NCBI RefSeq assembly: GCF_900105015.1
Contig: NZ_FNLK01000006.1
Span: 75,480 to 107,479, forward strand
Source: Schaalia meyeri
Lineage (GTDB): Bacteria > Actinomycetota > Actinomycetes > Actinomycetales > Actinomycetaceae
Length of the DNA: 32,000 bases
Reading direction: 5' to 3'
Of this stretch, positions 957 to 27,341 are shown piece after piece. The notes beneath the pieces are model-generated. The model ran no database searches and had not been told where the DNA came from. It was given only the letters and a program-made list of their open reading frames with translations. Numbering within the stretch: the first letter of the stretch is position 1; each line of letters opens with the position of its first letter. Made by a program: the position numbers and the translations under genes.

Positions 957-1027
957 TCCGCCTTGGTGTAACGGCAGCACAGAGGTTTTTGGTGCCTTTA
1001 GTCTAGGTTCGAATCCTAGGGGCGGAG
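957..1027 (+). tRNA. tRNA-Gln (anticodon TTG)
   Basis: Manual cloverleaf fold. Acceptor 957-963 TCCGCCT pairs with 1020-1026 GGGCGGA (one G-U pair). D stem is GTGT/GCAC. Anticodon stem is GAGGT/GCCTT with loop TTTTGGT, placing the anticodon TTG at 989-991. T arm is CTAGG-TTCGAAT-CCTAG. The discriminator is G1027 and CCA is not encoded. A small hairpin CGGTCCC-GAT-GGGACCG (1032-1048) follows. Confidence 0.9.
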
Positions 1028-3278: not shown

Positions 3279-3872
3279 ATGAGCGACAACCCCGTCCTGC
3301 TGGCTGAAGAGCGCACCGAGTTCGGTAAGGGTGCGGCGCGCCGCACCCGCCGCGCCGCCAAGGTCCCCACTGTCCTCTACGGCCACGGCGCCGAGCCCCG
3401 TCACCTGGACGTGCCCGCCCACGACCTCTTCCTCATCGTGCGCGGCACCAAGAACGCGCTCGTTGAGCTGAAGATCGAGGGAAAGTCCCAGCTGGCCCTG
3501 GTCAAGGAGGTTCAGGTTCACCCCGTGCGCCGCAACATCCTGCACGCCGACTTCCTGGCCGTCAAGGCCGACGAGAAGGTCGACGTTGAGGTCGCCGTCA
3601 TCGTCACCGGCGAGCCCGCTCCCGGCACCGTCCACACCGTCGAGGAGTTCACCATCTTGGTCAAGGCTCCCGCCACCGCCATCCCCGAGAGCCTGGAGGT
3701 CTCCATCGAAGGTGTCGAGGCCGGTTCCGCCGTGCGCGTCGCCGACCTGGTCCTGCCCACCGACGTTGAGGTCGAGCTCGACCCCGAGACGGTGATCGTG
3801 TCCGTCCAGGAAGCCGCCGCTGAGCAGAAAGAAGAAGCAGCCGAGGCCGACGCGGAGGCCGACGCCGAGTGA
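3279..3872 (+). CDS. rplY: 50S ribosomal protein L25 / general stress protein Ctc (197 aa)
   Basis: The N-terminus is RTEFGKGAARRTRRAAKVPTVLYGHG, followed by the L25/Ctc beta-barrel (QVHPVRRNILHADFLAV). It has an acidic Ala/Glu-rich tail. It lies downstream of prs, as in other Actinobacteria. Confidence 0.93.
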   Translation: MSDNPVLLAEERTEFGKGAARRTRRAAKVPTVLYGHGAEPRHLDVPAHDLFLIVRGTKNALVELKIEGKSQLALVKEVQVHPVRRNILHADFLAVKADEKVDVEVAVIVTGEPAPGTVHTVEEFTILVKAPATAIPESLEVSIEGVEAGSAVRVADLVLPTDVEVELDPETVIVSVQEAAAEQKEEAAEADAEADAE

Positions 3873-3895
3873 CACGCGCTTACTGACGCTCTGTG

Positions 3896-3923
3896 AAGGG
3901 GCGAGGCTGTGGCCTCGCCCCTT
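3896..3923 (+). terminator. Intrinsic terminator after rplY
   Basis: Perfect 12-bp stem AAGGGGCGAGGC (3896-3907) / GCCTCGCCCCTT (3912-3923) with a 4-nt loop, 24 nt after the stop. There is no strong T tract, which is common in high-GC actinobacteria. Confidence 0.6.
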
Positions 3924-3947
3924 CCGCCTATCTGCGATACTTGAGGC

Positions 3948-5075
3948 ATGAGTGACCTCCACGTGATCATCCCCGCCGGCGGTGCCGGCACCCGCCTGTG
4001 GCCGCTGTCCCGCCGCCGCCGCCCGAAGTTCCTGCTGGATCTGGCGGGGACGGGGCGCTCGCTCCTGCAGGGAACGGTTGACCGGCTGGAGGAGGTAGCC
4101 TCGACGGTGACGATCGTGACGGGGCGAGACCACCGCGACGGCGTGCTCGCCCAGCTGCCCGAATTTGCCGCATCCCGGGAGCGTACCGTCCTCATTGAGC
4201 CCTCCGGGCGCGACTCCATGGCCGCGATCGGCCTGGCCGCCTACGTGGTTCGCGAACGCTTCGGGGACGACGCCATCGTCGGCTCCTTTGCTGCCGACCA
4301 CCTGATCGCCCGGCCCGAGCTGCTCCGCGGCGCCGTCGAGGCGGCCTGCACCGCCGCGGCAGCCGGATACGTCGTGACGATCGGCCTGACGCCCACGGAG
4401 GCTTCGACCGCCTACGGGTACATCGCGCCGGGCCCGGCCTCGGGAGCCGGGGACCGGGCGGCGGATCCCGGCGCCGCCGGGCAAACCCGAACGGTCGCCG
4501 AGTTCGTGGAGAAGCCAGACGCGGCCACGGCAGCGCGCTACGTGAGCGAGGGGTACCTGTGGAACGCCGGCATGTTCATCGTCTCCGCCGGTCAGCTGGC
4601 CCACCACCTGGCCCGCCTCCTGCCCGACATGCATGCGCGCCTGGAAACCATCGCGCGCGCGTGGGACACCCCCGACTTCGAGCACACTCTGGAGGAAAAC
4701 TGGCCGCACCTGACGAAGATCGCGATCGACCACGCCATCGCGGAACCCGTCGCGGCCGACGGGGGAGTGGCCGTCGTCCCCGCCGACGCCGACCTGGGAT
4801 GGACCGACCTGGGCGACTTCGACGCGCTGACCGCCATCGCCACCACCACCGGGCACCTGGGTGAGGCGCTGCGCGTCGAATCCGACGGTGCCGCCGTCTA
4901 CGGCTCTACGGTGGGAGAAGCAGAGGACGGGCCGCTCGTCGCGCTCGTCGGGGTCCCTGACATCGCACTCGCTCTCACCCCCGACGCCATCCTCGTCACC
5001 CGACGGGACCGGGCGCAGGCGGTCAAAGCGATCGTCGAGGAACTGGCGGCAGGCGGGCGAACCGACCTGCTCTGA
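3948..5075 (+). CDS. Mannose-1-phosphate guanylyltransferase (GDP-mannose pyrophosphorylase family, 375 aa)
   Basis: The N-terminus VIIPAGGAGTRLWPLSRRRRPKFLL is the ManC/NTP-transferase signature. It also has EPSGRDSMAAIGLAA, GYIAPG, FVEKPD and YLWNAGMFI blocks typical of ManC-type enzymes without the isomerase domain. Confidence 0.85.
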   Translation: MSDLHVIIPAGGAGTRLWPLSRRRRPKFLLDLAGTGRSLLQGTVDRLEEVASTVTIVTGRDHRDGVLAQLPEFAASRERTVLIEPSGRDSMAAIGLAAYVVRERFGDDAIVGSFAADHLIARPELLRGAVEAACTAAAAGYVVTIGLTPTEASTAYGYIAPGPASGAGDRAADPGAAGQTRTVAEFVEKPDAATAARYVSEGYLWNAGMFIVSAGQLAHHLARLLPDMHARLETIARAWDTPDFEHTLEENWPHLTKIAIDHAIAEPVAADGGVAVVPADADLGWTDLGDFDALTAIATTTGHLGEALRVESDGAAVYGSTVGEAEDGPLVALVGVPDIALALTPDAILVTRRDRAQAVKAIVEELAAGGRTDLL

Positions 5076-5185
5076 ATGGGCCCGAGATGGCCTCCGACAG
5101 GTGTGGTTTCACGGCCGTTTCACGCCGTTAGTGCGGTGAGGTGTGCCGTCCGCCCGGCCTCCAGCCGGGCGCGGCTGCTACCGTG

Positions 5186-6403
5186 ATGGGCAGTAAGGCG
5201 CCCCGACGAAAGGCATTCGACGTGAACAAGCGGACTATCGCCGCCCTCGCAACCACCGTGACAGCGGCCGCACTGGCCCTCGGCTCGTGCTCGACCACGC
5301 CCTCCGCCGTGTCCTCCGCGGACGCGAAGGTGTGCGCCGCCATCTCGGGGGCACACGGGGACGCGTCGACGGATCCCGTGGCGACCGCTCTTAAAGGCGC
5401 AGCCGACGGTGCGGCCATCGCCTACGAGGCGGCATCCGGCCAGGGGGCGCCCGCTTCGCTCGCGGCATCGGGCTGCACCCTCATCGTCGGTGCGGACTCG
5501 ACCATGGCCCAGTCCGTGTCGGAGGCCGCCAGAAACAATCCGCGAGTCAGGTTCGCCCTGGTCGGCGCCTCGTTCGTCAATGGCAAGGGATCCGCGACCT
5601 CGCTGAAGAACGGCTCTGTCGTCAACGTTGCCGCCTCGCAGGCCGCCTACCTCGCCGGGTACGCCTCCGCCGGCATGACGACCACCGGCACCCTCGGCGT
5701 CATCGGCGGCGTGCGCGACAACGTTACGAGCGCGCAGATGTCCGCCTTCTCACAGGGGGTCGACGCCTACAACCGCGCGAACGGCACATCCATCAGCGTG
5801 CTCGGATGGAACACCGCGACCAATGACGGAACCTACGCCGAGAGCACCGATCAGGTTCAAAGCGCTGCCGCAGACTTCATTTCCCGCGGAGCGGACATCA
5901 TCGTGCCGCTGGCGGGCGAAGCGAACATGGGTGCGGCGCGCGCCGTCACCGCGGCCGCAAACCCGCTGGTGCGCCTGGTGTGGTCCGGGCTGACCAAGGC
6001 GGATCTGAAGGGCCTGACCCGCGACGAAGCCCAGTCGCAGGGCGACGTGCCCATGTCCGGGCAGTCCGGGGCAAGCGCGCCCCAACGGGTCGATACCCAG
6101 TCCTTCGCGGACGCATTCAGCTACATCCAGATCTCCGATCAGGTTCGCGCCGCCATCGGCGCGCCCGTCCTGACCGGCATCGTCGTTGACTACGCGAAGG
6201 CCATGGAGACGCTGATTTCCGATGCAACCGCGGGGGCAGACGCGTCAACTGTGTCCGTCTCGCTGGCATCGGGTGGTGTGATCCTCACGGGCTTCGGCGC
6301 CTACACGCCGATGCTGTCTTCCGACCTCAAGCTTGGGCTGTCCGACATGGCGGGCCAGATAGAAACCGGCGGCATGGTGGTGTCCACGCCTTTCGACGCG
6401 TGA
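5186..6403 (+). CDS. BMP-family (PnrA-like) substrate-binding lipoprotein
   Basis: Signal peptide with lipobox LALGSC. BMP/PnrA-like blocks are present (RFALVG, AAYLAGYASAGMTTTGTLGVIGG, DIIVPLAG). The start is uncertain: ATG 5186 or GTG 5222 (the latter preceded by GAAAGG). The track's 5141 start is probably too long. No cognate ABC ATPase or permease genes are adjacent. Confidence 0.8.
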   Translation: MGSKAPRRKAFDVNKRTIAALATTVTAAALALGSCSTTPSAVSSADAKVCAAISGAHGDASTDPVATALKGAADGAAIAYEAASGQGAPASLAASGCTLIVGADSTMAQSVSEAARNNPRVRFALVGASFVNGKGSATSLKNGSVVNVAASQAAYLAGYASAGMTTTGTLGVIGGVRDNVTSAQMSAFSQGVDAYNRANGTSISVLGWNTATNDGTYAESTDQVQSAAADFISRGADIIVPLAGEANMGAARAVTAAANPLVRLVWSGLTKADLKGLTRDEAQSQGDVPMSGQSGASAPQRVDTQSFADAFSYIQISDQVRAAIGAPVLTGIVVDYAKAMETLISDATAGADASTVSVSLASGGVILTGFGAYTPMLSSDLKLGLSDMAGQIETGGMVVSTPFDA

Positions 6404-6626
6404 GTTGAGGCGCCACGCGCCGATCATTTCCCCGCCGAGACTCCCGCCCGCCGCACGAGCGCGGAAACTCGACTCATCGCCGCGCAGCCACGGCCTCGTT
6501 GATGATAGCCAGGACCAAACGGAAGCCGGCGCCCCTGCGCGGACCTGGAGCCTCACCGCAGGCTTCAAGACGGGCACGGATCATCCGGGGCGCCGCTATC
6601 CTGGGGGAAGCGATGCAGGAGGAAAC

Positions 6627-7775
6627 ATGCAGCTGACGAACGTGACGGATGTGCTCGCGCTGACTCGCCAAATGATCGACATCCCCTCGGTGTCGGATCA
6701 GGAAGGCCCACTGGCGGACGCGGTCGAATCCGCGCTGCGCGATGCGGGCTTCGGGTCGGTGCCGCCCCTTCAGATCCTGCGCGACGGGGACGCTGTGTTG
6801 GCGCGAACCCAGCTGGGACTCGGCCAGCGCGTCGTCCTGGCTGGGCACCTGGACACCGTGCCCATCGCGGATAACGTGCCCGGCCGCACCGAGGAGCGTG
6901 ACGGTGTGGAGGTGTTGTGGGGCCGCGGCTCGGTCGACATGCTCGGCGGGTGCGCGGCTGCCCTGGCGCTCGCCTGCGAGGCCGGGAAAGCGGTACGCGG
7001 GGGAGCGTTCAGCGTGCTGACATCGGACGTTACGTGGATCTTTTATGACCACGAGGAGGTTGCCGCCCACCTCAATGGCCTGGGGCGCGTCCAACGCAAT
7101 CACCCCGATTGGCTCGCGGGTGACCTGGCGTTGCTGGGGGAACCCACCGCCGGGCACGTGGAGGGCGGGTGCAACGGGACGCTGCGCGTCATCGCACACT
7201 TCCCGGGCCGGGCCGCGCACTCCGCGCGCGCCTGGATGGGCCACAACGCGATCCACGCGATGGCCCCCGTCATTATGCGAATCGCCGCCTACGGGAACCC
7301 CGTCGTCGACATCGACGGGCTGGACTTCCGCGAGTCCCTGTCGGTCGTGCGCGTGCGGGGCGGGGCCGCCAACAACGTGATCCCCGAGGCCGCCTCGATG
7401 ACGGTCAACTACCGCTTCGCGCCCTCCACCCGCGCGTCGGACGCGCTGGCGTGGGTGCGGGGGCTCTTTGAGGGGACGGGAGCGCGAATCGAGGTCGACG
7501 ACCTGTGCGAGGGCGCGCTCCCCGGCGCTCATTCGCCCATCGCCGAGCGTTTCCTGGCGGTCGCTCGCTCAGTCGCGGCCGAGAGGGGCTGTGAGCTGCG
7601 GATCGGCGCCAAGGTCGGGTGGACGGACGTCGCTCGCTTTTCCCAGGCGGGGGTGCCCGCCATGAACTTTGGCCCCGGGGATCCGCTGCTGGCGCACACG
7701 CGCGACGAACACGTGCCAGCATCGGATATCGTCAGGGTGTACGATACGCTGCGCGCCTTCGTGCTCGCGCTGTAG
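6627..7775 (+). CDS. dapE: Succinyl-diaminopimelate desuccinylase (M20 peptidase, 382 aa)
   Basis: ATG 6627 is preceded by AGGAGGA. The protein has IDIPSVSDQEGPLAD, LAGHLDTVP, an M20 dimerisation-domain region and a C-terminal AHTRDEHV motif. The track ORF from 6405 is an upstream in-frame extension without coding character. Confidence 0.85.
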   Translation: MQLTNVTDVLALTRQMIDIPSVSDQEGPLADAVESALRDAGFGSVPPLQILRDGDAVLARTQLGLGQRVVLAGHLDTVPIADNVPGRTEERDGVEVLWGRGSVDMLGGCAAALALACEAGKAVRGGAFSVLTSDVTWIFYDHEEVAAHLNGLGRVQRNHPDWLAGDLALLGEPTAGHVEGGCNGTLRVIAHFPGRAAHSARAWMGHNAIHAMAPVIMRIAAYGNPVVDIDGLDFRESLSVVRVRGGAANNVIPEAASMTVNYRFAPSTRASDALAWVRGLFEGTGARIEVDDLCEGALPGAHSPIAERFLAVARSVAAERGCELRIGAKVGWTDVARFSQAGVPAMNFGPGDPLLAHTRDEHVPASDIVRVYDTLRAFVLAL

Positions 7776-11522: not shown

Positions 11523-12819
11523 CGATGCTCCTTGCCATCATGCGGTCGGTGACGTCGTCGTCGAAGTCGCGCCAGTCGTCGGGCAGCAGCTCGTCCAGGA
11601 CGTCGTCGACCGAAACGGCGCCGTGGAGGTGCCCGTCCTCGTCGACCACCGGCAGGACCGTCAGGTTGTAGGTGGCCAGCAGTCGCGTAACGGTGGCGAT
11701 GTGCGCGTTGGGTTCCACCGACTCGATGCTGCGGTCCAGGATGGTGCCGAGCAGCGTCTGCGGGGGTTCCCTCAGGGCGCGCTGGATGTGCACCATGCCC
11801 AGGTACTGCCCTGTCGGCGTCTCCTGAGGTGGACGGGCGATGAATGCGACGGTGGCGATGGAGGCGGGAATGTCCTCGCGTCGCACCGCCGCAAGCATCT
11901 GCGCGACGGTCGCGTTGGGGCCGAAGACGACGGGCTCCGTGGTCATGAGAGAACCGGCTGTGGACTCGTCGTAGGTCATGAGGCGTCGAACGTCCTCGGC
12001 CTCCTCGGGCTCCATGAGCGCGAGGAGCGATTGTGCTTGGGCGTCGGGCAGCTCGGCCACCAGGTCGGCGGCGTCGTCGGGCTGCATGACGTCAAGGACG
12101 TCGGCGGCGCGTGCCGCTTCGAGGCCGGAGACGATGGCAACGCGGTCGTCATCGCCCAGCTCCTCGAGCACGTCTGCCAGGCGCGCGTCGGTGAGCTGCA
12201 TGGCGACCGCCATCTTTCGGTCCTGAGGGAGATTATGCATGAAGTCCGCCAGGTCGGCGGGTCGCATGTCCTCCGTGTGCTGCAGGAGCGCGGTGGCCGC
12301 CTGGTTCGAGTCCGTTTTAAGCAGCCCCGACACATCGGAGACATCCACCGTCAGGGTTTCGCCGCTGCGCGTGAACCCAAGGGACGATGTGCGTACGCGC
12401 TGGACGTGCAGGGTGGAGATAACCCAGTCCTTCGGGCGGCGCTGGCGCATCGCGACGTCGAGGATGCGCACCTGACCGGAGCCGTCATTCATGGTGACAA
12501 CGCGGTCGAAAAGCTCGGAGAGCACCAGGGTTTCGATGGGGCGCAGCGTGAAGGAACGAATGTTGAGCAAGCCCGTCGTGATGACCGATCCCGACTCGAT
12601 GGCGGTCACGCGGGTGAGCGGCAGGAAGACGCGTTTACGCGGGCCGACCTCGACGACGAAGCCGATCACGTTGGCGGCGGATTTCAGCCGAAAGATGACA
12701 ACGACATCGTGAATCTTGCCGACCTGGTCGCCCAAAGGGTCGAAAACACCGGTGCCAGCGAGCTTTCCGATGTAGACGCGACGACCCTTGGTGCCTAGTT
12801 CAATAGATGCGATGCCCAC
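11515..12819 (-). CDS. Soluble MgtE-N / tandem CBS domain protein with an N-terminal PRC-barrel-like region (434 aa, no transporter TM domain)
   Basis: GTG start at 12819. The middle has the MgtE_N acidic helical repeat (ADVLEELGDDDRVAIVSGL...AADLVAELPDAQAQSLLALMEPEEAEDVRRLM). Two CBS motifs follow (TTEPVVFGPNATV..., LTVLPVVDEDGHLHGAVSVDDVLDELLP). The ORF ends without any membrane domain. Confidence 0.85.
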   Translation of the reverse strand: MGIASIELGTKGRRVYIGKLAGTGVFDPLGDQVGKIHDVVVIFRLKSAANVIGFVVEVGPRKRVFLPLTRVTAIESGSVITTGLLNIRSFTLRPIETLVLSELFDRVVTMNDGSGQVRILDVAMRQRRPKDWVISTLHVQRVRTSSLGFTRSGETLTVDVSDVSGLLKTDSNQAATALLQHTEDMRPADLADFMHNLPQDRKMAVAMQLTDARLADVLEELGDDDRVAIVSGLEAARAADVLDVMQPDDAADLVAELPDAQAQSLLALMEPEEAEDVRRLMTYDESTAGSLMTTEPVVFGPNATVAQMLAAVRREDIPASIATVAFIARPPQETPTGQYLGMVHIQRALREPPQTLLGTILDRSIESVEPNAHIATVTRLLATYNLTVLPVVDEDGHLHGAVSVDDVLDELLPDDWRDFDDDVTDRMMARSIDG

Positions 12820-19601: not shown

Positions 19602-20168
19602 ATGAAGAAGACGAGTTCGTCTCTGCTCGCCGCAACCGCGGTGCTCGGTTTGATCGTTGCTTCGGCCGGTGCTGCTTTCGCTGCCGAGACCCCCGCTGAC
19701 AAGCAGCCCTCGTCCCCCGCTACCACCGCCCCCGATGGTAAGCAGGAGCCGGCCCCCGGCGACAAGCAGACTCCGCCTCCCGGTGGTGGCCAGACTCCGC
19801 CTCCCGGTGGCGGTCAGACCCCGCCCCCCGGTGGTGGCCAGACCCCGCCCCCCGGTGGTGGCCAGACTCCGCCTCCCGGTGGCGGTCAGACTCCGCCCCC
19901 CGGCGATAACCAGACGCCCGCCCCCGGCGGCGACCAGGGCGCTGGCGGTTCCTCCGGTGCCGTTGGCGGATCCGGCGTGAGCACCCGCGGCCAGATCTCG
20001 ACCGGCAATGGTCCGGCCCCCGTTTCTGCCCGCGGTGGTATCCGAAACTCCTCCCCTCAGGGTTCGGCGCTGGCTAATACCGGTTCTACCGCGTCGCTCG
20101 CCGCCGGTGCCGGTGTGATCGCCCTGGCTGGTGGCGTGAGCCTGGTGATTGCGCGTAAGCGTCACTGA
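19602..20168 (+). CDS. Proline-rich repeat surface protein with an LAxTG cell-wall sorting signal (188 aa)
   Basis: AGGAGA RBS is upstream of ATG 19602. The signal peptide is MKKTSSSLLAATAVLGLIVASAGAAFA. GGGQTPPP repeats follow. The C-terminus has LANTG, a hydrophobic stretch and ARKRH, which forms a sortase (LAxTG, class E-type) anchor. Confidence 0.85.
   Translation: MKKTSSSLLAATAVLGLIVASAGAAFAAETPADKQPSSPATTAPDGKQEPAPGDKQTPPPGGGQTPPPGGGQTPPPGGGQTPPPGGGQTPPPGGGQTPPPGDNQTPAPGGDQGAGGSSGAVGGSGVSTRGQISTGNGPAPVSARGGIRNSSPQGSALANTGSTASLAAGAGVIALAGGVSLVIARKRH
19767..19934 (+). repeat. In-frame 24-bp tandem repeat (about 5 full and 2 degenerate units) encoding QTPPPGGG
   Basis: Units begin at 19767, 19791, 19815, 19839, 19863, 19887 and 19911. 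The consensus is CAGACYCCGCCYCCCGGTGGYGGY. Units differ only at synonymous positions until the last two degenerate copies. Confidence 0.9.
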
Positions 20169-23104: not shown

Positions 23105-23115
23105 CGCGTGCGCGT

Positions 23116-23153
23116 GAGTGAGGCCCGGGACCGAGCGGTCCCGGGCCTCACTC
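23116..23153 (+). terminator. Strong intrinsic terminator after glgP
   Basis: Perfect 17-bp stem GAGTGAGGCCCGGGACC (23116-23132) / GGTCCCGGGCCTCACTC (23137-23153) with a GAGC loop. A T-rich tract follows (ATTGATGCTCTTGTGATCTGTGTCTCGTTTTCC). Confidence 0.75.
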
Positions 23154-23193
23154 ATTGATGCTCTTGTGATCTGTGTCTCGTTTTCCGAGATAG

Positions 23194-23253
23194 CTGTATT
23201 ACTGTGTTGACACAGTTGGGAAAGGCTGTCATTGTATTACTGTATTAATACAG
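23194..23253 (+). promoter_or_regulatory. Operator/promoter region of the GntR-ABC cassette
   Basis: This is an AT-rich island in GC-rich DNA. It has an inverted repeat ACTGTGT-TG-ACACAGT (23201-23216) containing TTGACA. It has a perfect 14-bp palindrome CTGTATTAATACAG (23240-23253) of the GT-N6-AC type. An 11-bp direct repeat TGTATTACTGT occurs at 23195-23205 and 23233-23243. Confidence 0.6.
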
Positions 23254-23274
23254 CAAGACAGGAGGGGTACATTG

Positions 23275-23637
23275 ATGCGCATCGATGACACCCGCCCCAT
23301 CTGGATCCAGCTGGCCGACGCCTTTCGCGCCCGCATCATGAACGGCACGTGGAAGCCCGGAGCGAAGATCCCATCCGTCCGAGACCTCGCCATCGAGGCC
23401 GGCACGAACCCCAATACCGTCCAACGAGCCCTCGCCACCCTCGACGACGAAGGACTCACGATCCCGAAGCGAACCGCCGGGCGATTCGTCGCCACTGACG
23501 ACAAGGCCCTGCATGCCCTGCGAAGGGACGACGCGCGGGCAGCGGCAGACACCTACGTCCGCACCTGCCTGGCGCTCGGAATCGACCGGGAAAGCGCCCA
23601 CAGTCTCGTCGATGAGCATTGGAACTCCGACTCATAG
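23275..23637 (+). CDS. GntR family transcriptional regulator, YtrA subfamily (120 aa)
   Basis: GGAGGGG RBS is upstream of ATG 23275. The winged HTH is KIPSVRDLAIEAGTNPNTVQRALATLDDEGL. The very short C-terminal region (about 50 aa, two helices) is characteristic of YtrA-type GntR proteins paired with ABC transporters. Confidence 0.85.
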   Translation: MRIDDTRPIWIQLADAFRARIMNGTWKPGAKIPSVRDLAIEAGTNPNTVQRALATLDDEGLTIPKRTAGRFVATDDKALHALRRDDARAAADTYVRTCLALGIDRESAHSLVDEHWNSDS

Positions 23638-23657
23638 CACACAGGAGGCATCCCCTC

Positions 23658-24386
23658 ATGACCACCCAATCCCCGGGCGCCACAACGGCGTCCCCTGGCC
23701 TCGTTCACATCGACGGCCTGACCAAGCGCTACCGCGCGACGACCGCCCTGCAGGACTTTCACCTGACCCTCGACGCCGGCCACATCGTCGGCCTCATGGG
23801 ACCCAACGGCTGTGGCAAGACCACGCTGTTGAAGATCCTGGCCGGCGTCCTGTCCGACTACGACGGCACCGTCGCCATCAACGGGCACCGCCCCGGACCC
23901 GTCTCCAAGTCCATCGTCTCCTACCTGCCCGACGCCGACTTCCTCAACGTGGAATGGACCGCGCGCAAGGTCATCGCCGAATACTCCCGGTTTTTTGCCG
24001 ACTTCGACGCCGACAAGGCGGCCGCCATGGTCGACTTCTACGGCCTGCCGCAGGGGCGGCCACTGCGCGAAATGAGCAAGGGCATGGGTGAGAAGCTCCA
24101 GATCAGCCTCATCATGTCCCGGCGCGCCCGCGTGTTCCTGCTGGACGAGCCCATCAGCGGCGTCGATCCCGCCACCCGCGACGTCATCCTCGAGGGGATC
24201 CTGCGCGAGTTCGACCCCTCCTCGCTGCTCATCATGTCCACCCACCTCATCTCCGACATCGAACACTTCGTCGACTACGCGCTCTTCATGAAAGGGGGGA
24301 GCATCTTCCTCCAAGGCGACGCCGACGACCTGCGTGCCACGCGGGGGGACTCCCTCGACGCAATCTTCCGAAAGGAGTACCGCTGA
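23658..24386 (+). CDS. ABC transporter ATP-binding protein (242 aa)
   Basis: AGGAGG RBS lies 9 nt upstream of ATG 23658. It has Walker A GPNGCGKTT, the signature-like MSKGMGEKL, Walker B VFLLDEP and an H-loop MSTHL. Confidence 0.9.
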   Translation: MTTQSPGATTASPGLVHIDGLTKRYRATTALQDFHLTLDAGHIVGLMGPNGCGKTTLLKILAGVLSDYDGTVAINGHRPGPVSKSIVSYLPDADFLNVEWTARKVIAEYSRFFADFDADKAAAMVDFYGLPQGRPLREMSKGMGEKLQISLIMSRRARVFLLDEPISGVDPATRDVILEGILREFDPSSLLIMSTHLISDIEHFVDYALFMKGGSIFLQGDADDLRATRGDSLDAIFRKEYR

Positions 24387-25201
24387 TGTACCCGACACTG
24401 CTGTCATATGAAATCCGCTCCCGAGCCTGCGCCGACGCGCGCATCCTCGCGGCGCTCGCCGCGGTCGCCGCGGCCACCCTCGGCGTCATCGCCCTCGGTA
24501 TCCCCGGCCTGAGCGGTTCCGCCACGACACTTGCCTACATCATATGTATCGCGACCCCCGTCGGGTTCGCGGTGATCGGGATGAGCGACTACTGGAAGAC
24601 CCTCTACGGCCAACGCGGCTACTTCACGATGAGCCTGCCGACTTCGGGGGCGTCGATCTTCTGGGCAAAGGTCACCCGGATTTTCCTCGAATCACTCGTC
24701 GCCCTCATTTTCACCATCGGAGGCATCATTGCTACTGCCTCCGTGACGGCCTGGCGTAACGGATTGACCCTGACCGAGTACACCGCCAATTTTCGCGCCG
24801 CCTTCGCAATCTTCCCCACCTCGGTCCTGGTCATGCTGGCGATCGGGCAGATCGTTTCGACGTTCGGCCTCATCGTGCAAGCCTGCGCCGTCATGACGAT
24901 CGGGGCTGAGGGACGCTTCAACCACATGGGCTTCGGTGCGCCGATAATAGGTTTCATCATCCTTTACCTCATCAACCAAGTGCTCAGCGGCGTCGGTACC
25001 CTCTTCTCCCCGCTGTCCGTGAACATCACGACCGGGCGATTGAGTACCGAGATCATGTGGACCTCGTTCATCTCCACGATCAATACTGATGAGTCGCCAA
25101 ACGTCATTGGGGTGGGGGCATACGTACTCTTCCCGCTGTTCGCTCTCGCCCTGGGGATCTGGGCCTCTCGCTCCATCGAGAAGCACACGTCCCTGCGCTA
25201 G
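24386..25201 (+). CDS. Polytopic membrane protein, putative permease partner of the ABC ATPase (271 aa, family not recognised)
   Basis: The ATG overlaps the ATPase stop (TGATG). It has about 6 hydrophobic segments. I recognise no conserved motif. It uses visibly more A/T-ending codons than its neighbours (tat, gaa, att, ttt, aat). Confidence 0.7.
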   Translation: MYPTLLSYEIRSRACADARILAALAAVAAATLGVIALGIPGLSGSATTLAYIICIATPVGFAVIGMSDYWKTLYGQRGYFTMSLPTSGASIFWAKVTRIFLESLVALIFTIGGIIATASVTAWRNGLTLTEYTANFRAAFAIFPTSVLVMLAIGQIVSTFGLIVQACAVMTIGAEGRFNHMGFGAPIIGFIILYLINQVLSGVGTLFSPLSVNITTGRLSTEIMWTSFISTINTDESPNVIGVGAYVLFPLFALALGIWASRSIEKHTSLR

Positions 25202-25206
25202 TCACC

Positions 25207-25258
25207 CGTCCTCGCGCGCGAGCCCAGCGTCCGCCCGCACCGCGAGCGCGCGAGGACG
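25207..25258 (+). other. GC-only 13-bp hairpin between the permease and CPBP genes (possible partial terminator or processing site)
   Basis: CGTCCTCGCGCGC (25207-25219) pairs perfectly with GCGCGCGAGGACG (25246-25258), leaving a 26-nt loop. There is no T tract. It starts 6 nt after the permease stop. Confidence 0.35.
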
Positions 25259-25328
25259 ATGGCAGCGTCGACGAAAGGAGGCGAGGCCCCCAACGCGCGT
25301 TTGCCAGGACCGAGCACAGGAGGTTTCG

Positions 25329-25937
25329 ATGTCCTACTTATCGTCAGCGATCAGCGCCTTCGTCCAACTTGGCCTGGTCCTCGTGCTTCCCCTCGCGTGG
25401 TGGGCGCTGGCCGCGCGCCGGACCGTTGCCTTTCTCACGTGGATCGGTCTGCGCAGACCGACGTGGCGCGCCAGCGCGCCGCAGCTCGCGTGCGCAGCGC
25501 TGTCGTGGGTATTCGTCGGGCTGGTTTCGATTGTGCTGCTGCAATCGCTCTCACGCGGTGAGCCCGCCTCGCGTTTCGCTGGAAGCGGCCTTGCCGGGGT
25601 TGTTCCGGTCCTGCTCTTCGCGATCATCCAGACCTCCCTCGCCGAGGAGATCTTCTTCCGAGGCTTCCTCGGAAAACGGCTCATCGCCAGATGGGGATTC
25701 GGGGTCGGAAACGCGGTGCAAGCCGTGGTCTTCGGTCTGCTCCACGTCGCCCTGTTCGCCTCCATCGCGGGCCCGATACAGGTCGTCCTGATCGGCGCCG
25801 CAACAGCTGCCAGCGGGTGGATGACGGGGTGGATCAACGAAAAGGGGGCGGAGGGATCAATCATTCCGGGCTGGTTGCTGCACGCGACGGCCAACCTGAT
25901 CGTCGGACTTGGAACCGCCTTCAACCTACTGGCCTGA
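25329..25937 (+). CDS. CPBP family intramembrane glutamic endopeptidase (CAAX protease / Abi family, 202 aa)
   Basis: AGGAGG RBS lies 5 nt upstream of ATG 25329. It has motif 1 LAEEIFFRGFLG, motif 2 FGLLHV and motif 3 WLLHATANL, embedded in about 6 TM helices. The track start at 25089 overlaps the permease and is unlikely. Confidence 0.85.
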   Translation: MSYLSSAISAFVQLGLVLVLPLAWWALAARRTVAFLTWIGLRRPTWRASAPQLACAALSWVFVGLVSIVLLQSLSRGEPASRFAGSGLAGVVPVLLFAIIQTSLAEEIFFRGFLGKRLIARWGFGVGNAVQAVVFGLLHVALFASIAGPIQVVLIGAATAASGWMTGWINEKGAEGSIIPGWLLHATANLIVGLGTAFNLLA

Positions 25938-25943
25938 AACCCG

Positions 25944-25977
25944 ACGCCACCAGCGACGCGCGGGTCGCTGGTGGCGT
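25944..25977 (+). terminator. Intrinsic terminator after the CPBP gene
   Basis: Perfect 14-bp stem ACGCCACCAGCGAC (25944-25957) / GTCGCTGGTGGCGT (25964-25977) with a 6-nt loop, 7 nt after the stop. It is followed by TTGCCTCTGCC. Confidence 0.65.
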
Positions 25978-26116
25978 TGCCTCTGCCGGGGTTATGCCGC
26001 TGGTCGGGTTGTGCCTGTGCCGGGTCCTCAGGAAACGCACACCGGGCATTGAGGAATCATGCAGGCTCTTATGATGGTGTAAGAGCATTGCGCGATGAAT
26101 CCTCGAAAGGAAACCT

Positions 26117-27097
26117 GTGGAACCAGCGACCGAGTCATTCGTCCCTGCGAGCCCGGATCTGATCTGGATGGTGTTCATACAACAGGTGCTCGTCCTTATC
26201 GCATGGGTCATCGGCCTCGTTGTGCGCCGCGTGCTCAAGAACCGCATGACGATGTCGACGGCATCGGCGACCCTGGCCGGACTGGCCGGGCTGTGGGGTG
26301 GGCTGGTCATCGCGGGGTGGATTTTCGACTCGGGCGACCTGTGGAAACCGGACATGATCGGTGTCGCCGCGCTGGTTGCCCTCGTCGTCGTGGTGGTGGT
26401 CGCCCTGGTCACCGCTTACCTGCACCCGCGCCCCGGCCTCGAACCAATCGCCGAAGTTGCCCGGCGTGGAGAATCCGACTCCCGCGAGTTCAAGTCCAGC
26501 GCCCGGTGGAACATGCGGACGGGCAAGCGCGACGAAGCGATCGAAACCGTCATCGCCAAGACCGTCGCCGCGTTCATGAACTCCGGCGGCGGCACACTCC
26601 TGATCGGCGTCGACGACGACGGTCGGCTCATCGGCCTCGGCCCCGATTACGCGACCCTCAAGACTCCGGACGCCGACCGCTTCGAGCTGTGGATTCGCGA
26701 CCTGTGGAGGCAGCGCCTGGGGACCAACGCGGCCGCGTTGCCCCGGCTCGATTTCGCGGAGGCCTCGCAGCCACAGGAGGGCTACGAGCGCCAGGAGGTG
26801 TGTCGGGTCACCATCCCGCCCTCGCCTCGTCCCGTCTACCTGAGGGGGGCCAAAGGCAAGGGGGAAGCGGAGCTGTGGGTGCGTGTCGGCAATTCGACGC
26901 GGCGCCTTGAGGTGGTCGACGCGGTGCAATACGTGTCGCTTCGCTGGCCCGAAAGCGTGCGAGTGTCCCCCCTGACGCGCGTGAGGCTGTTCATGACGCT
27001 GCGCCACCGCGAGACGCCCACGCGCCTGCCGGGCGTCGTACAGCGCGTGCTCGCCGAGGGTGGGAGCGGCGAGATTCCCGCATCCGAGGGCGAATGA
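26117..27097 (+). CDS. Membrane-anchored AlbA_2 (Schlafen-type) domain protein (326 aa)
   Basis: GTG 26117 is preceded by AAAGGAAA, and ATG 26168 is an alternative. Three N-terminal TM helices are predicted: LIWMVFIQQVLVLIAWVIGLVV, ATLAGLAGLWGGLVIAGWIF and MIGVAALVALVVVVVVALVTAYL. An AlbA_2 core follows: ESDSREFKSS...IAKTVAAFMNSGGGTLLIGVDDDGRLIGL...LWVRVGNSTRRL. No HTH or ATPase module follows it. Confidence 0.8.
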   Translation: MEPATESFVPASPDLIWMVFIQQVLVLIAWVIGLVVRRVLKNRMTMSTASATLAGLAGLWGGLVIAGWIFDSGDLWKPDMIGVAALVALVVVVVVALVTAYLHPRPGLEPIAEVARRGESDSREFKSSARWNMRTGKRDEAIETVIAKTVAAFMNSGGGTLLIGVDDDGRLIGLGPDYATLKTPDADRFELWIRDLWRQRLGTNAAALPRLDFAEASQPQEGYERQEVCRVTIPPSPRPVYLRGAKGKGEAELWVRVGNSTRRLEVVDAVQYVSLRWPESVRVSPLTRVRLFMTLRHRETPTRLPGVVQRVLAEGGSGEIPASEGE

Positions 27098-27341
27098 CCC
27101 GCGGGGGAAGTCGGATACGAGGTCTATGACAACGGCGGCATCAACTGAGGGCGCAGCTCCTCAGCGTTGCCGAAGCAGTTCCTGGCCGCTGTTACCTCTC
27201 ACGTGAGCCTGTCGCCCGGTGATGTTGCCCGGCGATCTCGCACGTTCACCCGCCGGGGTACACGCCGATCGAGCTGCCCACACGCGCCCCAGCGGGTTTT
27301 CGCCGCCGACCAATGCACACGGCGCGCGGCACGCGAACGCC

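Follow-up and report, generated by a model that had tools for sequence, protein, structure and literature searches.

We analyzed a 32,000-nucleotide stretch of the Schaalia meyeri genome (NCBI RefSeq assembly GCF_900105015.1, contig NZ_FNLK01000006.1, positions 75,480 to 107,479 of the forward strand), referred to here as the window. Between glgP and a DEAD-box helicase gene, the window carries a block of five genes that encode a GntR repressor of the YtrA subfamily, an ATP-binding cassette (ABC) ATPase, a permease with six transmembrane (TM) helices, a CPBP/Rce1-like glutamic intramembrane protease, and a membrane-anchored AlbA_2/Schlafen-like protein. The first three genes are called the triad below. 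A first-pass annotation had described the block as a self-contained accessory cassette and possibly an envelope-triggered immunity or defense module. After comparing it with about 100 related loci, we instead consider it likely that the block consists of three separately inherited units that are neighbors by descent: a triad operon, an optional CPBP gene, and a conserved AlbA_2 gene. The locus is an ordinary chromosome neighborhood in oral Actinomyces and Schaalia, not a new defense system.

Pfam searches confirmed the domains that had been assigned to the five genes and left the permease without a family. In NCBIfam, no equivalog-level match was found for any of the five proteins, and an Rfam search found no element inside the block. 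See Table 1 for the coordinates of all features. The ATPase and permease genes are tightly coupled by a TGATG overlap, as already noted, while the GntR stop codon and the ATPase gene are separated by 20 nt rather than the 21 first counted. The block is indeed convergent with the helicase gene, and the 244-bp interval between the AlbA_2 and helicase genes (27098-27341) is empty. The reported preference for A/T-ending codons is real but weak: GC content at third codon positions (GC3) is 0.79-0.84 across the block genes versus 0.87 in glgP and the helicase gene, and the permease gene, which had been singled out, is not extreme at 0.82. Horizontal transfer was considered on grounds of composition and rejected, as the block departs little from its flanks in either GC or GC3.

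Table 1. Genes, operator-like sites, and hairpins of the five-gene block (window coordinates)
Feature	Position	Strand	Details
glgP terminator hairpin, 19-bp stem	23114..23155	+	-47.5 kcal/mol, z -6.9; 0/200 shuffles fold equally well
Operator-like site A, TGTATTACTGTGTTGACACAG	23195..23215	.	Holds -35-like TTGACA at 23207-23212
Operator-like site B, TGTATTACTGTATTAATACAG	23233..23253	.	Overlaps inferred -10/start region
GntR gene, YtrA-subfamily repressor, 120 amino acids (aa)	23275..23637	+	PF00392, 47 bits (cutoff 27), residues 13-73; alternative TTG start at 23272
ABC ATPase gene, 242 aa	23658..24386	+	PF00005, 80.8 bits
6-TM permease gene	24386..25201	+	No Pfam family; TGATG coupling to ATPase gene
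GC-rich hairpin 3' of permease gene	25207..25258	+	-40.3 kcal/mol, z -4.8
CPBP/Rce1-like glutamic intramembrane protease gene, 202 aa	25329..25937	+	PF02517, 50.2 bits (gathering score 22.4); own AGGAGG ribosome-binding site
Hairpin 3' of CPBP gene, 16-bp stem	25942..25979	+	-37.7 kcal/mol, z -3.5
AlbA_2/Schlafen-like gene, 326 aa, 3 TM	26117..27097	+	PF04326, 62.6 bits; GTG start

Related loci were gathered through homologs of the permease and of the AlbA_2 protein, a glgP scan of GTDB genomes, and a CPBP scan of metagenomes, and the window proteins were mapped onto the fetched loci by tblastn. We used glgP as the genome-scan query because profiles from the permease alignments contained no stretch conserved enough for this purpose. 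A permease profile search returned only near-identical oral Actinomyces, and more distant members were reached through a representative library and cluster look-ups. In the GTDB scan, glgP of the window was 93-94% identical to that of entries named “uncultured Actinomyces sp.” and “Pauljensenia sp.” The triad lies between glgP and the helicase gene in every examined locus that has both genes within ~10 kb, including those of the genus Schaalia. The triad at this position is ordinary conserved synteny and was most likely inherited vertically in Actinomycetaceae, keeping its place between these two genes across Actinomyces and Schaalia. Such a result had been set beforehand as one that speaks against an accessory cassette, and that description did not survive the comparison.

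Every combination of triad, CPBP gene, and AlbA_2 gene was observed, and the fixed co-occurrence expected of a single multi-gene system was absent. All five genes are present in the window, in L003-L006, in L014 (A. marseillensis), and in many oral metagenome contigs. The triad occurs alone at the glgP locus in Actinomyces sp. B33 (L019) and Schaalia sp. 19OD2882 (L096), at an ETF/MnmA locus in A. ruminicola (L093) and A. slackii (L095), and in a metagenome-assembled genome (MAG) of Eubacteriales whose permease is 25% identical (L097). It is accompanied by AlbA_2 but not CPBP in L001, L012, L013, and S. cardiffensis (L094), and by CPBP but not AlbA_2 in Actinomyces sp. ph3 (L015) and in L158, L162, L164, L167, and L170. 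The triad can itself be deleted. It is cleanly missing from a glgP-CPBP-AlbA_2 arrangement in L143 (5768-6634) and, independently, from a glgP-CPBP junction in L159 (4402-4639), a contig that ends inside the CPBP gene. Both are metagenome contigs of ~54% GC that resemble Actinomyces sp. ph3. Finally, AlbA_2 orthologs with 53-59% identity lie without GntR, ABC, or CPBP genes nearby in A. faecalis (L007), beside luxS and a methylthioadenosine (MTA)-nucleosidase-like gene; in L009 (53% identity), beside a class III lanthipeptide cluster; and in L011, in another context. Because all of these combinations occur in relatives, we read the block as three independent units. Values of dN/dS (the ratio of nonsynonymous to synonymous substitution rates) of 0.08-0.33 for all genes indicate purifying selection, with no sign of gene-wide positive selection.

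The GntR protein aligns over its full length with the YtrA-type structures 3neu, 4r1h, 2du9/2ek5, and 6sbs (Lin1836, Lmo0741, CGL2915, and YtrASa), covering residues 6-112 against 3neu and 6-114 against 2du9. It has the traits of the YtrA subfamily, including a winged helix-turn-helix, a two-helix C-terminal domain of ~50 aa, a total length of ~120-130 aa, and the first place in an ABC operon. The gene order GntR-ATPase-permease is the same in all related loci, including the Eubacteriales MAG. Among the closest known systems are the YtrA operons with ABC transporters (B. subtilis ytrABCDEF, C. glutamicum CGL2915, Listeria Lin1836/Lmo0741, and the M. tuberculosis Rv1152 family), which share the ~120-aa regulator architecture and palindrome-containing operators over their own promoter (PMC6746942). 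However, the window protein scores far below the equivalog cutoff for Rv1152 (49.9 versus 170 bits) and likewise for PmtR (35.5 versus 200 bits), and the window operon encodes only one ATPase and one permease, the latter from a small family that Pfam does not cover.

The first-pass annotation also reported an AT-rich operator and promoter belonging to the block, and this was upheld. The GntR promoter region is AT-rich and contains two 21-bp sites with the pattern TGTATTA-S-TGTrTTrAyACAG, which has 3 matches in the window, all at the GntR promoter, versus 0 expected by chance. Site B includes a perfect 14-bp palindrome, CTGTATTAATACAG, at 23240-23253. Both sites are nearly invariant upstream of GntR orthologs in all glgP-locus relatives, including Schaalia cardiffensis and Schaalia sp. 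19OD2882, and A. slackii and A. ruminicola have a related single site. The two-site layout, to which the GntR protein would bind, is the one expected of an autorepressor. It also agrees with the published description of YtrA-type regulators, which are encoded by the first gene of their operon and have long palindromic sites (PMC6746942). A scan for canonical promoters and terminators returned no sites, and the -10 element is weak.

The ATPase has PmtA as its top NCBIfam match (131 bits versus a cutoff of 350), and its closest solved nucleotide-binding domains are those of ABCA3/7/4, NosF, and Rv1218c, all type V exporters. The permease family comprises 247 clusters at 50% identity among 1.84 billion representatives, has no Pfam model, and includes named members mostly from Actinomycetaceae; 1 of 53 members matches an ABC2_membrane Pfam model, at E = 0.008. 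A sequence search of the PDB gave no match. The confident AlphaFold2 model (predicted local distance difference test score, pLDDT, 92.7) shows a multi-helix membrane fold consistent with the predicted TM segments. A Foldseek search with this model places ABC-2-type transmembrane domains on top, namely NosY, CcmB, PmtD, Wzm, and the Rv1217c/1218c pump, all of them weak matches with E values of at least 0.1 and TM-scores of 0.40-0.48. In public records, the Schaalia cardiffensis orthologs of the permease (P0470-P0472) are named “Brp/Blh family beta-carotene 15,15'-monooxygenase,” which looks like a mis-annotation given the ABC-operon context and the permease fold.

With its ATPase and permease translationally coupled, the triad most likely encodes an ABC-2-like exporter of homodimeric 2+2 architecture that represses itself in the YtrA manner, and it is a new member of a well-known kind of YtrA-regulated ABC exporter. 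In the proposed mechanism, unit 1 (23195-25258) would be held silent by the repressor bound to its two operators, over the -35 and -10/start elements of its own promoter. A signal, which by analogy is likely to be envelope stress or a compound with membrane-active or amphipathic character, would relieve this repression. The ATPase and the translationally coupled permease would then be made, assemble as a 2+2 ABC-2/type V-like exporter, and expel the compound from the membrane or cytoplasm. The YtrA and PmtR systems characterized so far react to antibiotics that target the cell envelope or to amphipathic peptides (PMC6746942; PMC5080381), and for this reason a membrane-active compound is our best guess for both inducer and substrate. 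Another close known system is S. aureus PmtR-PmtABCD, in which a GntR-type regulator, itself regulated by the exported peptide (PMC5080381), gates an ABC-2-type exporter of phenol-soluble modulins (PSMs). PmtA and PmtD (in PmtCD structures) are among the best matches of the window ATPase and permease, respectively. In contrast to the window operon, Pmt has two ATPases and two permeases; furthermore, the ATPase match stays below its cutoff, the Foldseek E value is ~1, and no PSM-like peptide genes lie nearby. With a small, Pfam-less permease family that invariably comes together with a YtrA repressor, and with a cleanly conserved operator, the triad is an easy target for identifying an inducer and substrate in oral Actinomyces and Schaalia.

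The hairpins point to the same division of the block. The very strong glgP terminator described previously was recovered and, as we infer, is the upstream boundary of the triad operon. Downstream, the first-pass annotation had placed a terminator at 25944-25977, between the CPBP and AlbA_2 genes. That hairpin is real, but an equally strong one at 25207-25258 had been overlooked. The latter likely marks the end of the triad operon, and nearly all relatives have a strong hairpin 3' of the permease gene regardless of the next gene. In L017, the permease-proximal hairpin segment CACCCGTCCTCGCGCGTGCGCGAGCCAG is duplicated. Since the hairpin at 25207-25258 is as strong as the one after the CPBP gene, the two together suggest three transcription units rather than a division into four genes plus one. 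The earlier caveat that the block might be two unrelated neighbors was thus essentially right about the neighbors being unrelated, but there are three units rather than two.

The second unit, the CPBP gene, encodes a protein with all three motifs of its family. EExxxR, FxxxH, and HxxxN are represented by E106, E107, R111, F135, H139, H185, and N189, which are invariant in five orthologs. Like other CPBP/Abi Rce1-like proteases (bacteriocin-immunity Abi proteins, the Rv0804 family, and NF041647), it exceeds the PF02517 gathering score. Unlike them, it lies in no bacteriocin locus, scores below every NCBIfam equivalog cutoff, and is often lost in relatives. In L017, it is a pseudogene (12174-12760): codon 29 is followed by an in-frame stop, and EExxxR and FxxxH have been lost to a deletion. 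As the gene is missing or decayed in several relatives, it is plainly dispensable in this clade even though its catalytic motifs are intact in the window. We regard it as a stand-alone protease that could have a pump-related membrane or peptide substrate, although nothing requires this.

The permease and CPBP genes also differ from their neighbors in divergence. Compared with L001, L003, and L014, both dN and dS are raised across window positions 24386-25937, with dS at 0.75-0.96, whereas glgP and the ATPase gene are at ~0.44; these two genes may have a weaker codon bias or represent older alleles. Three loci (L124, L125, and L128) are mosaic. Their permeases are 27-34% identical to that of the window and their GntR and ATPase proteins 51-58%, while the adjoining CPBP is 60-66% identical, which exceeds the CPBP identity in loci with a much closer triad. 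Such a pattern points to exchange of alleles or to recombination inside the locus.

Several observations weigh against a division into three independent units. CPBP genes with at least 50% identity are almost always found directly 3' of the permease gene on the same strand, and in L003 and L006 the gap between the two is only 48 nt with a weak hairpin. For these reasons, the two genes may be co-transcribed and functionally linked in some lineages. The CPBP protein also weakly matches NF041647, a fusion family named [quoted passage not shown] A permease-CPBP partnership therefore exists elsewhere in bacteria, and the window CPBP gene likewise adjoins an ABC permease gene. Only 86-87 nt lie between the permease gene and the start of the AlbA_2 gene in L001, L012, and L013, so that a promoter would have to fit into a short interval. 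None of the hairpins has a T-tract, and because of this we infer termination at them, and the permease fold assignment rests on the weak Foldseek scores given above.

One alternative is a four-gene immunity module, in which the YtrA-gated pump clears a membrane-active peptide, such as an oral bacteriocin, the CPBP protein serves as an Abi-type immunity protein, and AlbA_2 is unrelated. The same-strand arrangement with CPBP immediately 3' of the permease recurs in at least 60 metagenomic loci, and the short gap in L003 and L006, the intact catalytic motifs, and the existence of the NF041647 fusions are all in keeping with such a module. So are the resemblance of the ATPase to PmtA and of the regulator to PmtR, both from a system that exports peptides, the status of the permease and CPBP genes as the two fastest evolving of the locus, and the recombination at this spot that the mosaic loci suggest. 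However, CPBP is absent from the close relatives L001, L012, and L013, which keep the pump, and from all more distant triads; it is a pseudogene in L017 and persists without the pump in L143. In the window, a strong hairpin parts it from the permease gene. The more distant CPBP homologs that we inspected (L172, L176, and L177, at 38-46% identity) lie in unrelated contexts with no such pump adjoining, although these contigs are short. Furthermore, in agreement with the first-pass annotation, we found no bacteriocin genes in the window: neither a credible small open reading frame (ORF) for a precursor nor a modification enzyme lies within the block or near it, and a small-ORF search of the CPBP-AlbA_2 intergenic region turned up nothing credible. 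We therefore consider the four-gene module unlikely.

The third unit, the AlbA_2 gene, encodes a protein with three predicted N-terminal TM helices followed by an SLFN_AlbA_2 domain, which is predicted to face the cytoplasm. A Foldseek search shows DIP2311 of C. diphtheriae (PDB 3lmm), SLFN13/14/11, and the SAMD9 tRNase domain on top, with E values of 3e-5 to 7e-4. The motif G-E119-S-x3-E124-F-K126 (E-x4-E-x-K) is invariant in 18 homologs. The prokaryotic Schlafen defense nuclease Cash (CbCash) has the catalytic triad E17-D22-K24 (PMC13462974), to which the E-x4-E-x-K motif corresponds in position. Unlike Schlafen defense nucleases such as Cash and the fusions with prokaryotic Argonaute (SLFN-pAgo), the protein is fused only to its three TM helices. 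We found no fused CARF/Csx15, NACHT, ATPase, or pAgo partner and no adjoining defense genes, and its neighbors are housekeeping genes in four different contexts. It also falls into none of the defense-linked Schlafen clusters described in PMC13462974, which lack a TM-anchored class. Near the ortholog in L009, the lanthipeptide-type cluster (3476-7502) comprises a RamC-like kinase/cyclase, five ORFs of 41-45 aa, one of them matching RamS, and an FtsX-type ABC transporter.

The AlbA_2 gene is single-copy and widely distributed, and in several lineages it is preceded by a conserved region of its own. It ranks with the better conserved genes at this locus: where the permease has 60-68% identity, the AlbA_2 protein reaches 85-90% in most relatives, and its dN/dS is 0.12-0.23. 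From these comparisons, AlbA_2 appears to be an independent, separately promoted, strongly conserved, and vertically inherited gene that is unlinked to the pump. It is the sole mildly new element of the locus, as a membrane-tethered Schlafen-like protein with an intact motif that lies outside the prokaryotic Schlafen classes described so far. One could go further and propose that the protein founds a new class of Schlafen nuclease whose activity the membrane controls, for instance upon phage entry or damage to the envelope, in place of a nucleotide-sensing or ATPase partner, but we regard this as improbable. The protein does keep the invariant motif, has the three N-terminal TM helices, and is conserved across Actinomycetaceae and beyond them in other Actinomycetota; in this reading, it would act independently of the pump and CPBP.

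An anti-phage or abortive-infection system of all five genes, or of CPBP and AlbA_2, in which an envelope signal sensed at the membrane activates the tethered nuclease, could draw on the Schlafen fold and its Cash-like motif, on CPBP and AlbA_2 still adjoining in L143 after loss of the triad, and on a variable gene spot just downstream in relatives, yet it is highly improbable, as AlbA_2 is conserved, single-copy, and widespread in a way that is not typical of defense genes, its orthologs stand alone beside housekeeping genes, and loci with only one of CPBP and AlbA_2 exist for both genes. Also against it, neither a plasmid copy of the permease nor a phage copy of AlbA_2 turned up by tblastn, and PADLOC (PADLOC-DB v2) matched none of the five proteins except the ATPase. 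The matches of the ATPase were generic P-loop ones (mad3, AriA, and others), which bears out the earlier statement that the gene set matches no named defense system. The envelope-triggered immunity or defense module first proposed therefore has little to stand on: no set co-occurrence links its genes, AlbA_2 is found in unrelated contexts, CPBP is lost or decayed, and the triad can be deleted. The preferred reading, three units that are neighbors by descent, removes a false lead, as ordinary synteny here produced a combination of domains that resembles defense or immunity and has little significance as a “system.”

The space between the AlbA_2 and helicase genes is variable in relatives (L012, 15580-17754; L015, 15351-19988; L003, 7376-9388; L017, 14548-15945). 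It holds ankyrin-repeat proteins, ORFs with no Pfam match, a DUF308 protein, and an ISL3 transposase. Elsewhere in the window, the sole Rfam match is a tRNA gene at 957-1027 (+). An ORF at 19602-20168 (+) encodes a secreted protein with a signal peptide and six tandem Pro/Gly repeats of the GGGQTPPP type. At its C-terminus, an LANTG motif precedes a hydrophobic segment and a basic tail, and the product looks like a sortase-anchored surface protein.

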